Positions 13,877-50,630 of a stretch of DNA of 64,000 nucleotides are shown piece by piece. Within the stretch, counting starts at the first letter, position 1, and the number at the start of each line of letters is the position of its first letter. This DNA is from a virus (lineage: Duplodnaviria; Caudoviricetes): positions 1,620-65,619 of the IMG/VR virus record IMGVR_UViG_3300032213_002110, one strand, 5' to 3'. Position numbers and translations under genes: made by a program. The notes beneath the pieces were generated by a model. It did no database searches and had not been told where the DNA came from. It saw only the letters and a program-made list of their open reading frames with translations.

Positions 13877-14581
13877 TTAGACTATAGTTTTGATAGGATG
13901 ATAATATCCTGATTTCAACGGATCAAATGTGATAGAATCAATGTTCCAATTAATATAAGATTCCGAATTTAAAAATGGTTTATTTAATGTATACCCAGAT
14001 TGTTGTAACAGTGTTCCCAATCTTAATTCCGAAAACATATTATCATATTGTCTTGGATTGTTGATTATTAAAGTAACCATTGATGATAACACAGATCTAG
14101 TAAAAAATAAACCAGAAGTTGGTACTATTCCACCTATATTAGGTATTAATTTTTGAGAATCTGACAATTGTGTATACCAATACCAATTATTCAATGTTTC
14201 TTTTGGGTATATTATGTGACTAAAATTGGACATTGTTAATGCATTGTTATAAAAACTTTCCAATGAACAATTACAGTAAGTATCCCATTCTATCACTAAA
14301 TAAGTTGGTAAATTTGGATAATTTAAATAAAAATCATAGATTAATAAATCTGCTTCACTCCAGTATTCTCTTTTACAAGTTTCATTTAAAAGATTATTTT
14401 TTGGATATGATTGTTTTCTAGAAACAACATGAGAACCATCAATTAAATTATGATTTTCAAATCCTATTGGATAAATATTTTTTGTAGGATTGTATTTTTT
14501 TAACAATTCATAATTTTGCATTGTTATATTATCATTTGAATAATGTAAAAACAATATAGAAATTTTATTTTTTAATAACAT
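13877..14581 (-). CDS. putative GT-A-fold glycosyltransferase of unassigned family (paralog 1)
   Basis: IEWDTYCN acidic motif, YDNMFSELRLGTL and terminal YHPIK; paralogous to 14583-15269. Confidence 0.45.
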   Translation of the reverse strand: MLLKNKISILFLHYSNDNITMQNYELLKKYNPTKNIYPIGFENHNLIDGSHVVSRKQSYPKNNLLNETCKREYWSEADLLIYDFYLNYPNLPTYLVIEWDTYCNCSLESFYNNALTMSNFSHIIYPKETLNNWYWYTQLSDSQKLIPNIGGIVPTSGLFFTRSVLSSMVTLIINNPRQYDNMFSELRLGTLLQQSGYTLNKPFLNSESYINWNIDSITFDPLKSGYYHPIKTIV

Positions 14582-14582
14582 A

Positions 14583-15269
14583 TTATTTTACAGGATGATA
14601 AAAGTGTGGTCGATTTAGATTAACATTAATATCATCGGCTGTCCAACTTATATATTTTTCAATATCTTTTCTTCCTTTTTTAAGTGTAGTAAATTGACTT
14701 ACTAATGTACCACATCTTACTTCACAAAACATATTGTCATATAAATGTTTGTTGGTTAAAACTTCATTCACACATTTGCCCAATATATAATTTTTAAAAT
14801 ATACACAAGTTGATTGTCCATATGAATATAAAGTAGAAAACTTAATGTGATGTGGATTGTGTTTCCTATATAATTTTATCCATTCCCAATCTTCTGACGA
14901 TGGATCACATATACGATTTCCAAAAAAATCTACATTTGTATTAAAAAAAGATTCAATTTGAATATTACAGATTGTATCATATTCATATAAAAAATATTCA
15001 TCATAATTAGGCATTTGAAAATAAGCATCATATGCAAATAAATCACAATCAAACCAATCAATTAATTTATTCGGAACATAATAATTAATTGCTTTATTTG
15101 TTGGATATTTTTCTTTATTTACGATCAATGAATTTGGAATCAAATTATATCCTTCAAATCCAATAGGAATTACATCCCAAGTAAGATTTAAATTTTTTAA
15201 ATTGTTAAATCTTTCAATTACGATATCATCGACATAATGATGACTGAAAATAATTAATTTATTTTTCAT
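14583..15269 (-). CDS. putative GT-A-fold glycosyltransferase of unassigned family (paralog 2)
   Basis: YEYDTICN, YDNMFCEVRCGTL, terminal YHPVK. Confidence 0.45.
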   Translation of the reverse strand: MKNKLIIFSHHYVDDIVIERFNNLKNLNLTWDVIPIGFEGYNLIPNSLIVNKEKYPTNKAINYYVPNKLIDWFDCDLFAYDAYFQMPNYDEYFLYEYDTICNIQIESFFNTNVDFFGNRICDPSSEDWEWIKLYRKHNPHHIKFSTLYSYGQSTCVYFKNYILGKCVNEVLTNKHLYDNMFCEVRCGTLVSQFTTLKKGRKDIEKYISWTADDINVNLNRPHFYHPVK

Positions 15270-15286
15270 ATACTTTTCATGTATAG

Positions 15287-47704: not shown

Positions 47705-48516
47705 AGTAATGTTTTTATCCCTTCATAAATAGAAATATGTTGTTTAAATCCTATTTTATTTAATTTATTAACATTTAAGTACATGTCTTTAACTTGTACA
47801 ATTTTGTGAAAATCAACCGCATCTATAGCAGTAATTTTGCTGGACGAATTTGTTTCTTTAATTACAAAATCAATAATATCTCTGAACTTTTGTGGTATAC
47901 CACTTCCAATATTAATAATTTCATTATAATCAGTACGATATAACACAGAATAGATAGCTTTACATACATCATCAACATGCATATAATCTCTAATAAAATC
48001 TCCGTCATAGTATAATTTTATTTCATTATTGTCTTTGATTTGATTGATCAAATATTGTAAAGCATTCTTTTGTTTTGATACACCGTCATCAGATGGACCA
48101 TATACATTACACAGTCTTAGAATTCTGTACTTGATTTTGAATGTTTCACAATAACTAATAATTAAATCTTCAGCACAACGTTTTGTTATACTATAAAAGC
48201 CTTTTGGTTTACAACAAGAACTTTCTTTTGCAGGTAATTCTATATCTCCATATACAAACCAACTACTAACAAAGTTAAAAACAATGTTTTTGTCTTTGCA
48301 GTTTTGTAACACATTCAACAATTTTGTTAAGTTTGTATCTACATCTTTGTGAATATCATCAAATACATGATAATTGTGGGTAGTACTAATCATATACAAT
48401 ACATTCTCATGTATAGGTACATTGTCTTCTCTATCATGTACATATGTAGATTCGTTGTATAATTTTTTAAAATTACCACCAACAAATCCAGTACCACCAA
48501 ATAAATCAATTTTCAT
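47701..48516 (-). CDS. NAD(P)-dependent nucleotide-sugar epimerase/4-reductase
   Basis: GGTGFVG, SSWFVYG, YSITK (YxxxK), RLCNVYG, RDYMHVDD. Start moved to ATG 48516. Confidence 0.75.
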   Translation of the reverse strand: MKIDLFGGTGFVGGNFKKLYNESTYVHDREDNVPIHENVLYMISTTHNYHVFDDIHKDVDTNLTKLLNVLQNCKDKNIVFNFVSSWFVYGDIELPAKESSCCKPKGFYSITKRCAEDLIISYCETFKIKYRILRLCNVYGPSDDGVSKQKNALQYLINQIKDNNEIKLYYDGDFIRDYMHVDDVCKAIYSVLYRTDYNEIINIGSGIPQKFRDIIDFVIKETNSSSKITAIDAVDFHKIVQVKDMYLNVNKLNKIGFKQHISIYEGIKTLL

Positions 48517-49798
48517 ACTTTTCAACGACTTCTTTAATATAATCTAGATTGTCTTGTGTTAATGTTGGTGAAGATCCCAAAAAGAATACATTACCAAGTA
48601 CATTGGTAGCGTTTGGATAGTTCTTCCAACTTTCTAGATGAGTATAAGCCGGATGTAATAGAATGTTTCCGGCAAAGTAATTTCTAGTTTGAATACCATG
48701 AGACTCTAAATAAATGACCAACTTACTCTTTTGTTCAAATGTTTCACAAATTACTGGTACACCAAACCAAGATACATCAGCTTTATCATATTTGGTTGGG
48801 AATCTTAGTCCTTTGATCTTTGATAGAATATTTTGAATTGTATCTTTATTTTTCTTTCTTGATTCATGGATACTATCTGCTTTCTTTAACTGTGCCAACC
48901 CTATACCACCTTGTAAATCTAGTGGCTTTAGGTTGTATCCAATTTGGGAGAAGAAATATTTGTGATCAATTTCATATGGAAGTTCCTTGATCCACTGACT
49001 AAATCTACAATTGCAACTGCCATTCTTTAATAAATTGGCAGGGCCAACACAATAACAGTCTCGTCCCCACCAAGCAAATGTTCTAGCCAACTTAACAATT
49101 TCTTCAATATTGGATGATACCATTCCACCTTCACCAGTAGTAATATGATGCGCAGGATAAAAACTACAACTGGTAGCAATAGCATATTCATCCAAATGCT
49201 TTCCATTCCATTTGCTACCATAACTGTCACAACCATCCATAATGATTTCAAGGTTATGAGTTTTAGCAATTTCTACCAATCTATCCATGTCGGGTGGATT
49301 TCCTAATACAGGAGATACAAATATAGCTTTAGTATTTGGTGTAATCTTTTTTACCAATTCATCCAAATCAAAATTAAGTGTGTTATATTCAATATCAACA
49401 AATACAGGTTTTAATCCATTTTGAATAACTGGATTCAATGTAGTTGGAAATCCGACAACTGATATTAGAATTTCATCGGTAGAAGTCCATTTGAAATATT
49501 GTTTAAGTGCAGCAATCATTACAAGATTAGCTGAACTTCCAGAATTTACCATTACAGAATATTTTTGGTTTACTGTCTTACTAAACTCTCTTTCAAATTG
49601 ATATACCTTTTCACCGCTAACAAACCATTTACCAAACAACAACGAATCAATTGCTTCTGTTAATTCTTCTATATCCATCATTGGACCTGAATAATATACT
49701 TTATCCTTTGATCCTTTCAAATTATGACAGTATTCAGGTACAAATTGTGTTTTTTGTACTTCACTTATAAAATTTCTAATTAATTCTTTTTTATTCAT
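48506..49798 (-). CDS. rfbH: NDP-4-keto-6-deoxyhexose 3-dehydrase E1 (RfbH/DdhC/AscC type, PMP and 2Fe-2S dependent)
   Basis: VNSGSSANL, FPTT, EDxCD-like MDGCDSYG, SFYPAHHITTGEGG (His in place of the Schiff-base Lys), WGRDCYC...SCNC, GYNLKP, TRNYFAGN. Start moved to 49798. Confidence 0.85.
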   Translation of the reverse strand: MNKKELIRNFISEVQKTQFVPEYCHNLKGSKDKVYYSGPMMDIEELTEAIDSLLFGKWFVSGEKVYQFEREFSKTVNQKYSVMVNSGSSANLVMIAALKQYFKWTSTDEILISVVGFPTTLNPVIQNGLKPVFVDIEYNTLNFDLDELVKKITPNTKAIFVSPVLGNPPDMDRLVEIAKTHNLEIIMDGCDSYGSKWNGKHLDEYAIATSCSFYPAHHITTGEGGMVSSNIEEIVKLARTFAWWGRDCYCVGPANLLKNGSCNCRFSQWIKELPYEIDHKYFFSQIGYNLKPLDLQGGIGLAQLKKADSIHESRKKNKDTIQNILSKIKGLRFPTKYDKADVSWFGVPVICETFEQKSKLVIYLESHGIQTRNYFAGNILLHPAYTHLESWKNYPNATNVLGNVFFLGSSPTLTQDNLDYIKEVVEKYEN

Positions 49799-50630
49799 AT
49801 TTCTGTAAATAAGATTTATACTCTGATTTTGGTAATTTATCAACTACTTTTTTAAGTTGATTTTTATCTATAAAACCTTTATTGTAACATTCTTCTTCAA
49901 TACAACCAATTCTTATACCTTGACGTTCTTGTATTGTTTTAACATAAGCCGCACTTTGAAATAATGTATCTGGTTGACCGGCATCTAACCAAGCAGTTCC
50001 TCTTGGAAATTTGATTACATCTATAACATCATTTTTTAAATAGATATTCATAATATCAGTAATTTCTAATTCTCCTCTCTTGGATGGTTTTAATGATTTG
50101 GAATATCCAATTACTTTATTATCAAAGAAATATAAGCCGGGTATTGCATAATTACTAATAAATTCTTTTGGTTTTTCTACAATCTGTTTTATATTATCCC
50201 CGTCAAATTGTACAACTGCGTAATCCCATGGATTTGTTACTTCATATGCAAATACTAATGCACCTTTAAAATCCATTTTAGTTCTAGGTATTCCATGAAA
50301 AATATTATCACCCAATATCAGAGATACATTATCATTTCCAATGAAATCTTCGGCAATAATAAATGATTCGGCTATACCATTAGGTTTGTATTGTACTTTA
50401 TATATGATATCCAATCCAAGATGATTTCCAGTACCAAACATTCTTTCATACATTGGAAGATATTCAGGAGATGATATAATACAAAACTCTTTAATACCAC
50501 AACTAATCATAGTACTAAGAGGATAATAAATCATTGGTTTGTCATAAACAGGCAACAATTGTTTGTTTACAACAGTTGTAAGTGGATATAATCTGCTACC
50601 AGTTCCACCAGATAAAATAATTCCTTTCAT
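49791..50630 (-). CDS. rfbA: glucose-1-phosphate thymidylyltransferase
   Basis: LSGGTGSRLYPLT, KQLLPVYDKPMIYYPL, LILGDNIF, VEKP, GLYFFD, RGELEITD, RGTAWLDAG. Confidence 0.95.
   Translation of the reverse strand: MKGIILSGGTGSRLYPLTTVVNKQLLPVYDKPMIYYPLSTMISCGIKEFCIISSPEYLPMYERMFGTGNHLGLDIIYKVQYKPNGIAESFIIAEDFIGNDNVSLILGDNIFHGIPRTKMDFKGALVFAYEVTNPWDYAVVQFDGDNIKQIVEKPKEFISNYAIPGLYFFDNKVIGYSKSLKPSKRGELEITDIMNIYLKNDVIDVIKFPRGTAWLDAGQPDTLFQSAAYVKTIQERQGIRIGCIEEECYNKGFIDKNQLKKVVDKLPKSEYKSYLQKYE

Follow-up and report, generated by a model that had tools for sequence, protein, structure and literature searches.

Glycan genes of an uncultured jumbo phage: a conserved core, strain-specific islands and a possible role in glycosylating phage proteins

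To what molecule would a phage attach a glycan that it is equipped to build but not to export? The question is raised by a densely coded stretch of 64,000 nucleotides (nt; positions 1,620 to 65,619 of IMG/VR virus record IMGVR_UViG_3300032213_002110; guanine-cytosine (GC) content ~30%), here called the window, in which genes for activating, transferring and methylating sugars lie between positions 13877 and 50630. A preliminary description of the window proposed virion proteins as the acceptor, with DNA as the alternative. Beyond that first reading, this work finds that the system combines a conserved core with low-GC islands that differ between near-identical phages. A phage protein is put forward as the glycan acceptor with slightly less than even confidence, from the sequence comparisons set out below. 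The fuller picture, proposed tentatively, is that an abundant freshwater and marine clade of jumbo phages may build a strain-specific methylated fucose/dideoxyhexose glycan directly on tail fibres or capsid, via sequential soluble glycosyltransferases (GTs) in the bacterial cytoplasm, with the inner core made by virus-only GTs and the outer part swapped like an O-antigen cassette.

A conserved core and variable islands

The source of the window is confirmed as a phage by its T4-type family B DNA polymerase (PolB, 27353-29887), its clamp-loader subunits (25106-26056 and 51909-52436), Mom and a complete 296-kb relative. This relative, G001, is a 295,831-bp IMG/VR contig (CheckV, 100% complete) that shares 83-94% nucleotide identity with the window across homologous stretches, has a gene for a gp23-type capsid protein, and stands in for the window phage in whole-genome searches. 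Many further close relatives are present in IMG/VR. The closest cultured phage by PolB is Microcystis phage Mel-JY01 (45% identity), and a megablast search of 24 kb of the window against cultured phages returned no match. Genome-wide family searches covered three complete genomes, namely G001, Mel-JY01 and the Flavobacterium phage vB_FspM_immuto (hereafter immuto; host Flavobacterium sp. LMO8), and two partial relatives, G002 and G003, while every window open reading frame (ORF) of at least 80 amino acids (aa) was searched against Pfam, alongside PHROG and NCBIfam scans. A Shine-Dalgarno-like motif precedes just 22 of 206 G001 genes, and positions -2 to -8 are A-rich; these features, together with the Flavobacterium phage relatives, point to a host in the Bacteroidota. 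The window phage is read here as an uncultured jumbo phage of ~296 kb, with a T4-type replisome and capsid, whose host is probably a freshwater member of this phylum.

The region 13877-50630 is not one contiguous cluster, but three blocks, with the clamp loader, PolB and a PD-(D/E)XK nuclease occupying 25106-31814. Scoring the window proteins as present or absent in 25 related loci defined a core of four genes, comprising the two halves of a GT4 (32082-33606), a 434-aa GT-B and a GT2, which in relatives always follows the PD-(D/E)XK nuclease gene and usually has a dUTPase embedded:

32082-32612, plus strand: N-terminal half (176 aa) of the split GT4 (Pfam Glyco_transf_4, weak)
32620-33606, plus strand: C-terminal half (328 aa) of the split GT4 (Pfam Glycos_transf_1, 55 bits)
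33603-34283, plus strand: trimeric dUTPase inside the core, not a glycan gene (PDB dUTPases to E 2e-16 over residues 23-182; Pfam dUTPase)
34288-35592, plus strand: 434-aa GT-B, GT4-like (weak in Pfam; phrog_2170 glycosyltransferase, E 4e-12; GT-B model)
35595-36134, plus strand: Methyltransf_24 within the core of the window strain (Pfam, 67.5 bits)
36064-36804, plus strand: core GT2 (Pfam Glycos_transf_2, 56.5 bits)

The core recurs in the same order in two cultured phages, Mel-JY01 and immuto, at 37-43% identity (37-40% for the Mel-JY01 proteins). Nearly all relatives keep this GT4, which is a single fused ORF of 480-506 aa in loci L021 and L024 and in immuto, where it is gp181 and the counterpart of the 434-aa GT is gp180 (436 aa); since the fused form is that of more distant relatives, the split is a lineage-specific fission. 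The methyltransferase at 35595-36134 was found solely in L014, L016 and L023 among the relatives. The core GT2 ORF as called (246 aa) overlaps this methyltransferase gene by 70 nt, and its real start is probably near 36136, because the orthologues are shorter (221-225 aa).

The core GT families look virus-specific from their known relatives. Metagenomes contain at least 8000 homologues of the 434-aa GT, on contigs as long as 313 kb; the 120 best of these include none with a bacterial name, and the Atlas clusters of this GT are 96-100% Viruses. Its AlphaFold2 model (pLDDT 78.5) has a GT4-type GT-B fold, for which the top Foldseek match was 3oy2, the chlorovirus NY-2A protein B736L (E 8e-14), a likeness of generic GT4 fold with a TM-score of 0.60-0.66 and 11% identity. 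B736L was also the best PDB sequence match of the C-terminal half of the split GT4 (E 9e-9).

Around this core, the glycan genes are distributed as follows, with one sugar-nucleotide gene outside the main range:

2658-3824, minus strand: gmd, GDP-mannose 4,6-dehydratase, outside the main range (Pfam GDP_Man_Dehyd, 348 bits; NCBIfam gmd top match, 335 bits)
13877-14581 and 14583-15269, minus strand: two paralogous ORFs of 228-234 aa, candidate GT-A enzymes with an E(W/Y)DT motif (33% mutual identity; kept in G001)
15287-18582, minus strand: strain-specific insert with a weak FkbM methyltransferase, GT17, GT4 and GT15-like genes (Pfam)
15906-16664, minus strand: GT17 (Pfam, 75 bits)
16661-17722, minus strand: GT4 (Pfam)
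17719-18582, minus strand: GT15-like (Pfam, 74 bits)
18579-22486, minus strand: GT4-type enzyme, N-twitch radical S-adenosylmethionine (SAM) enzyme, weak methyltransferase and second N-twitch radical SAM enzyme (Pfam)
18579-19457, minus strand: GT4-type (Pfam)
19454-20743 and 21410-22486, minus strand: the radical SAM pair (NF033640 best match, below its cut-off)
22483-25044, minus strand: 853-aa multidomain GT (Glycos_transf_1 at residues 185-321)
36801-46753, plus strand: island with an Fcl-like short-chain dehydrogenase/reductase (SDR), four unassigned ORFs, Methyltransf_23, GT34, Methyltransf_24, GT10, GT11, an FkbM methyltransferase, an FkbM fused to an unknown 300-aa domain, and GT2 (Pfam, NCBIfam)
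40322-40951, plus strand: GT34 (Pfam)
41468-42304, plus strand: GT10 (Pfam)
42301-43134, plus strand: GT11 (Pfam, 110 bits)
45989-46753, plus strand: island GT2 (Pfam)
46748-50630, minus strand: dTDP-deoxyhexose set of RmlA, an RfbH/E1-like pyridoxal-phosphate enzyme, an SDR and RmlB (NCBIfam rmlA 339, RfbH 371 and dTDP-glucose 4,6-dehydratase 351 bits; Pfam)

These glycan genes (~36 genes and ~30 kb in the window, ~34 kb in G001) take up ~10% of the genome, and much of their content is not shared between strains. Window positions 15271-18579 are missing from G001, where ~0.5 kb stands, and 36802-50699 gives way to an unrelated 20.8-kb gene set (G001 23183-43948). This set includes two DegT enzymes, three SDRs, two HpcH aldolases, a thiamine-pyrophosphate enzyme, an RmlC-like epimerase, a GHMP kinase, a cytidylyltransferase, a radical SAM enzyme and a flavin-dependent (FAD) oxidase, among others, a combination suggestive of a pathway to a CDP/CMP-activated sugar that is branched-chain or rare in some other way. 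Among 17 relatives, the first 3.5 kb past the core GT2 come in at least nine types that are unrelated at the DNA level; the five phages with a PolB identity of at least 96% show four types. The variable genes have a GC content of 23-30%, against 30-36% for the backbone. A recent cassette transfer was considered for L003, which has the island type of L014, L016 and L023; the 70.5% nucleotide identity is about that of backbone divergence, and no such transfer is claimed.

Enzyme inventory and export machinery

Support from Pfam or PHROG extends to 13 GT ORFs in the main range, equivalent to 12 enzymes as one GT4 is split, and these comprise two GT2, several GT4 types, GT10, GT11, GT15, GT17 and GT34. 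The preliminary count of about 17 GT-like proteins holds for these 13 ORFs, while the remainder leans on four to five unassigned ORFs, and a proposed GT9-like member was recovered by none of the searches. Seven unassigned ORFs of the cluster match nothing in PHROGs. The paralogous pair at 13877-15269 has no Pfam or PHROG match; there is an Atlas lead to a giant-virus GT cluster, and the AlphaFold model of 13877-14581 is poor (pLDDT 54), its best matches being GT-A/nucleotidyltransferase folds with Z of at most 7.7, within background. A GT-A identity is suggested for the pair, which is left out of the GT count. The 853-aa GT, encoded immediately downstream of a clamp-loader gene and on its strand, is semi-conserved (45-97% identity across relatives); its N-terminal domain is 30% identical to the GT4 at 16661-17722, and it had no significant match in a PDB sequence search. 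The GT15-like protein lacks a membrane anchor, and its homologues are all metagenomic except one fungal match at 24% identity, while the sole named relative of the GT11 is an uncultured Caudovirales phage.

Modifying enzymes accompany the GTs. Five methyltransferases are firm (starts at 35595, 39094, 40953, 43138 and 43768) and two fall below the Pfam cut-off (15287 and 20740), against the nine domains first described. Both radical SAM enzymes of that description were found, with NF033640 (N_Twi_rSAM) the best NCBIfam match for each; they are paralogues, 35% identical, with the SPASM/twitch Cys cluster N-terminal, ahead of the CxxxCxxC core. All six nucleotide-sugar enzymes were likewise recovered: gmd, the Fcl-like enzyme at 36801, RmlB at 46748, an SDR at 47701, the RfbH/E1-like enzyme at 48506 and RmlA at 49791. 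The Fcl-like call for 36801-37778 is weak, at 87 bits against an equivalog cut-off of 500. Two sugar-nucleotide routes can be outlined from these assignments, probably leading to GDP-fucose (gmd and the Fcl-like SDR) and to a dTDP-deoxyhexose (RmlA, RmlB, the RfbH/E1-like enzyme and the SDR).

None of these enzymes is a polytopic membrane protein, as had been noted from the sequence: a Kyte-Doolittle scan predicted no transmembrane (TM) segment in any glycan ORF of the window, including both GT2 ORFs. The sole membrane ORFs nearby are 30114-30848, with a single N-terminal helix, and the following:

50663-50995, plus strand: 110-aa DUF1360 membrane protein with 3-4 helices (TM scan; DUF1360, 22.4 bits)

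The latter is the only multi-helix protein near the cluster, matches DUF1360 rather than GtrA, and is no recognised flippase; it is kept in G001 at 91%, and bears the late-type motif TATTTATA described below. Profile searches for export families, with controls positive in 8-14 of 14 reference genomes, found no match in the five relatives to the initiators Bac_transf (WbaP/PglC, PF02397; control positive in 10 of 14) and WecA/MraY (PF00953; 12 of 14), neither of which appeared in the window Pfam scans; nor to Wzx (PF01943), Wzy/WaaL/PglL (PF04932) or the Wzm-type ABC-2 permease (PF01061; 14 of 14). GtrA (PF04138) had no match in the relatives searched, and a TM scan of all G001 ORFs and of the window found no ORF that combined several TM segments with the size of a Wzx or Wzy. 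The preliminary statement that Wzx, Wzy, Wzm/Wzt, an initiator and GtrA/B/C are absent therefore holds in the window, and extends to three complete related genomes, since neither flippase nor initiator genes were found elsewhere in G001, Mel-JY01 or immuto. The membrane components that define a Wzx/Wzy locus, an ABC-transporter pathway and a GtrABC cassette are all absent here.

Candidate acceptors of the glycan

In the favoured reading, the phage would supply its own activated sugars: Gmd and the Fcl-like enzyme would yield GDP-fucose, and RmlA, RmlB, the E1-like enzyme and the reductase a dTDP-deoxy- or dideoxy-hexose. About 12 soluble GTs and 5-7 methyltransferases would then assemble a non-repeating methylated oligosaccharide, sugar by sugar, in the host cytoplasm. 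The core (split GT4, 434-aa GT-B and GT2) would put the inner glycan on a phage-supplied acceptor, likeliest Ser/Thr-rich tail fibres or another virion protein, and the island enzymes of each strain would add variable outer sugars to a glycan that might serve shielding, adhesion or host-range tuning. Such a logic would resemble that of chlorovirus and mimivirus systems, with a cassette turnover like that of O-antigen loci.

This virion-protein reading would rest on the presence of the core across phages of Cyanobacteriota and Bacteroidota, the apparently virus-specific core GTs, and a GT behind a tail-fibre gene in G001. Because the core is syntenic in Microcystis and Flavobacterium phages, a phage-borne acceptor is favoured, whereas a host-specific envelope acceptor is hard to reconcile with this distribution; virion proteins such as gp23 are shared by these phages. 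The hypervariability of the islands among near-identical phages also fits an exposed, diversifying structure. The main glycan blocks lie in the replication region, and G001 has one extra GT4 gene beside a structural-type gene (111680-112705, minus strand; L031:11680-12705), directly downstream of a gene for a 1652-aa tail-fibre-like protein with 24% Ser+Thr. A homologue from a different lineage, 41% identical, stands between giant proteins with 21-33% Ser+Thr, and the cultured-phage proteins most like the G001 gene product (~25% identity) are GTs that Streptomyces and Rhodococcus phages encode.

Expression signals bear on the same question. The motif TATTTATA occurs on the sense strand 3-30 nt before the start codon of ~46 G001 genes, against five in the opposite orientation, and is probably a late promoter or translation-initiation signal. 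The overall count of TATAAATA is at chance, so it is informative solely by position and orientation relative to start codons. The G001 genes that bear TATTTATA all lie beyond 47 kb, many of them fibre-like, with none in the glycan or replication region; the sites in the window are 8188-8195, 8222-8229, 13840-13847, 50642-50649, 60183-60190 and 61641-61648. Scans for sigma-70 promoters and terminators found no excess over shuffles, and one terminator (26130-26105) with one promoter-like site before the clamp loader is a weak hint only.

Several of these observations weigh against a virion acceptor. The motif TATTTATA precedes the ATG in 0 of 44 glycan-block genes, compared to 46 elsewhere (Fisher p 0.0009), and these blocks, lacking the motif and lying among replication genes, are therefore probably expressed early or in the middle of infection rather than together with virion genes; this timing is not decisive, because chlorovirus GT genes are also early. 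The fibre-adjacent GT4 sits in ordinary GT clusters in four other lineages. The G001 gp23-type capsid protein has no Ser/Thr tail or extension, and no G001 protein ends in a Ser/Thr tag, the richest C-terminal 20-mers having at most eight Ser/Thr and not being tag-like. Solubility alone does not discriminate, as the GTs of O-antigen loci are also soluble. The resemblance of the core GT to B736L is generic, and we know of no function for B736L itself. Finally, the missing flippase and initiator would be compatible with use of the host undecaprenyl phosphate (Und-P) machinery. Hence, of the complex methylated glycan on virion proteins that was first envisaged, the inventory and the lack of export genes hold, while no acceptor motif was found and the host Und-P route is compatible with the same genes.

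An orphan protein of 560 aa encoded in the G001 head region (141237-142919, minus strand; L033:1237-2919), with the capsid gene ~3 kb away, includes a mucin-like Ser/Thr/Pro tract of 70 residues (residues ~60-135), lacks homologues in cultured phages, and is a candidate O-glycosylation acceptor. Between 85 and 190 kb of G001, at least ten large late-type proteins with Ser-rich 'SSSY(A/S)(L/I)TAS'-like repeats form a fibre-like paralogue family (for example 88075-92268, 97786-99831 and 156534-159572), one member of which has a C-terminal Laminin_G_3 lectin-like domain.

The rival explanations differ in what the same enzymes would act on. In host surface remodelling, phage GTs would extend Und-P-linked or lipid A-core intermediates of the host, which the host initiator, flippase or ABC transporter, and ligase would export as altered lipopolysaccharide (LPS), capsule or O-glycan, thereby blocking superinfection or keeping progeny from adsorbing to debris. 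This is judged somewhat less likely than a phage-protein acceptor, and it has published precedent: P-SSM2 has 24 'LPS' genes in two clusters that are missing from its sister phage (PMC1079782), and surface modification was proposed for the polymorphic GT clusters of jumbo cyanophages (Iyer et al., PMC7824862). The original argument from missing export genes overlooked such use of host machinery, which is the published reading of the P-SSM2 clusters (PMC1079782, PMC7824862). Soluble GTs are as compatible with this route as they are in O-antigen loci, which the variable low-GC cassettes also resemble, and glycan genes that lack the late motif among early or middle replication genes would be timed to suit early remodelling of the host. 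However, phages of both Cyanobacteriota and Bacteroidota have the core, although these phyla are unlike in their envelope glycans and lipid-linked intermediates, and its GT families look like virus-specific enzymes and not like recent gains from hosts. Moreover, with about 12 GTs and no polymerase, the product should be a long one-off oligosaccharide, different in each strain, that unrelated host flippases and ligases must accept, and it is hard to justify ~10% of a lytic phage genome being spent on the surface of a cell about to lyse. A further rival is a soluble glycoconjugate, in which a small cytoplasmic primer would be turned into a free methylated oligosaccharide or glycosylated metabolite, for replication or for conflict with host defences, and for which the mycobacterial polymethylated polysaccharides provide a comparison. 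Many O-methyltransferases without export genes fit such a product; the structural neighbours of the 434-aa GT include the small-molecule enzymes BshA, MshA, OtsA and sucrose-phosphate synthase, as well as a methylmannose-polysaccharide mannosyltransferase, and the C-terminal half of the split GT4 also matches Pfam GT4-conflict (40.8 bits). Yet strain-level hypervariability is not expected of an intracellular metabolite, the GT10, GT11, GT15, GT17 and GT34 families typically decorate glycoproteins or glycolipids, and to our knowledge no phage precedent exists; the chance of this explanation is slim.

DNA is an unlikely acceptor. Hypermodification of the kind found in T4, RB69 and the 5-hydroxymethylcytosine (5hmC)-glycan clusters, with GTs adding sugars to a modified base as protection against restriction, would suit the position of the core, which always follows a PD-(D/E)XK nuclease gene inside the replication module and has a dUTPase embedded. 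The phage also invests in DNA modification, with Mom (60194-60976) and a possible deoxynucleoside monophosphate (dNMP) kinase (51266-51916), and phage GTs are able to build up to trisaccharides on DNA (bioRxiv 10.1101/2023.12.21.572611; PMC13326640). The hydroxylated base for such glycosylation comes from a ThyA homologue (hmC, hydroxymethyluracil (hmU) and 5-hydroxycytosine (5hoC); PMC13326640) or from a C5-methylase with TET (Pyle et al., bioRxiv 10.1101/2023.12.21.572611). The ThyA family (PF00303), found in G002, G003 and immuto, had no match in the complete G001 genome, from which the C5-cytosine methylase family (PF00145) was also absent, with its control positive; TET/JBP (PF12851) gave no match, a result of no weight as its control was silent everywhere. 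The DNA of immuto, which has the core, was analysed by liquid chromatography with ultraviolet detection and tandem mass spectrometry (Hutinet et al., PMC10516641), which identified canonical dA, dC and dT, with fdPreQ1 replacing dG, and reported no sugar adduct, low-abundance adducts being possible. The absence of ThyA and C5-methylase genes from G001 and the sugar-free nucleosides of immuto together disfavour DNA, and weaken the alternative acceptor first suggested. Known DNA glycans contain at most three sugars, which about 12 GTs, 5-7 methyltransferases and swappable islands far exceed. Base glycosylation by these GTs is accordingly given very little probability, and a phage protein is retained as the tentative acceptor.

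Other genes in the window include the PD-(D/E)XK nuclease, dUTPase, ribonucleotide reductase, Mom, UvdE, HNH and T5orf172 nucleases, and a lysozyme-domain protein. The Mom-family protein at 60194-60976 (148 bits) suggests adenine hypermodification. The product of 51266-51916, which adjoins the clamp-loader A subunit gene, is a 216-aa P-loop protein that may be a dNMP kinase, with a weak match to the phosphomevalonate-kinase family below the Pfam cut-off. A DruA-family protein (54144-55325; a Druantia component, 78 bits) suggests a defence-derived gene in the phage. G001 also encodes a membrane cyclase (273399-274838; L039:13399-14838) of 479 aa, in which two predicted TM helices accompany an adenylate/guanylate cyclase domain (E 6e-27) at the C-terminus.

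Known glycosylation systems and wider meaning

Large polymorphic glycan clusters have been known in T4-like phages since 2005 (Sullivan et al. 2005, PMC1079782). The P-SSM2-type 'LPS' clusters, a family defined by gene content, comprise 15-24 genes (sugar epimerases, nucleotidyltransferases and several GT families) in large T4-type phages, and are polymorphic between close relatives (PMC1079782, PMC7824862). The T4-type PolB, clamp loader, gp23, gene inventory and polymorphism described here are of the same kind. However, the window cluster is larger (~36 genes, 30 kb), has a virus-specific core at a fixed site after the PD-(D/E)XK nuclease gene, and includes GT15, GT17 and GT34 families and twitch radical SAM enzymes; its core is also found across host phyla, a distribution that speaks against the host-LPS interpretation proposed for P-SSM2.

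Closer parallels for a virion acceptor come from viruses that glycosylate their own particles. Chloroviruses (PBCV-1 A064R, A111/114R and A075L; GMD/GMER; NY-2A B736L; PMC5408694) share soluble cytoplasmic GTs, their own GDP-fucose, fucosyltransferase families, fusions of GTs and methyltransferases, and a conserved inner core with variable outer sugars. Soluble GTs and a nucleotide-sugar synthesis that includes GMD/GMER are found here too, the Fcl-like call being weak, and chlorovirus GT genes are expressed before virion genes (PMC5408694), to which the predicted early or middle glycan blocks can be likened. Among solved structures, B736L comes nearest to both core GT-B enzymes, with a likeness at the level of the fold (11% identity by structure; E 9e-9 by sequence for the C-terminal half of the split GT4). 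Chloroviruses have eukaryotic algal hosts and chemically proven capsid N-glycans, while the window system is known from its genes alone. The fibril glycosylation clusters of Megavirinae (PMC10117803, PMC9614988) likewise combine GTs with clade-specific genes for rare bacterial-type sugars (aminotransferases, 4,6-dehydratases), and vary in content between clades; these are eukaryotic viruses whose glycans decorate particle fibrils, whereas the window phage varies between near-identical strains, and the likeness is one of gene content.

Among bacterial viruses, mycobacteriophages Che8, Corndog and Myrna (Freeman et al. 2023, cited in PMC12619734) have soluble phage GTs, in some clusters with methyltransferases, that are proposed or shown to glycosylate the virion in the cytoplasm without export machinery. 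In these phages, 1-4 GTs are encoded next to structural genes, and the glycans are placed on Ser/Thr tails at the C-termini of capsid and tail-tube proteins; the window phage, in contrast, encodes most of its ~12 GTs in the replication region, and no tails of this kind were found in G001. The freshwater 'moraphages' (PMC12619734) share a genome size of 200-307 kb, T4-like structural genes, predicted Bacteroidota hosts, and a dUTPase with several GTs in the core genome, in which there are four core GT orthogroups; all are reported to carry heat-shock genes (PMC12619734). Membership of this group is not supported, since HSP70 (PF00012) had no match in G001, G002, G003, Mel-JY01 or immuto. Phage DNA glycosylation (T4 alpha- and beta-GT; 5hmC-glycan clusters; arabinosyl-5hoC, PMC13326640) shares GT-B enzymes near replication genes and phage-made nucleotide sugars, but needs a ThyA homologue or a methylase with TET, and G001 has neither the ThyA homologue nor the methylase. 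What is distinctive here is therefore the scale, the fixed virus-specific core across host phyla, the strain-level variability, the eukaryote-type GT families, and the convergence of the evidence away from DNA.

The at least 8000 relatives of the 434-aa GT imply that the product is made by a very common group of aquatic phages, which devote ~10% of their coding capacity to it. Soluble, anchor-free GT10, GT11, GT15, GT17 and GT34 enzymes and rare-sugar pathways can also be drawn from the islands, and as two cultured phages, immuto and Mel-JY01, carry the core, the question of the acceptor is directly testable. If it is instead the host surface that is rewired, this would be the largest known serotype-conversion system of a lytic phage. 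If the glycan is on the virion, variable sugar coats could affect adsorption, host range, grazing, aggregation, and recognition by antibodies or lectins. Giant-virus-style autonomous glycosylation would then extend to bacterial viruses, whose particles would carry 'serotypes' of their own.

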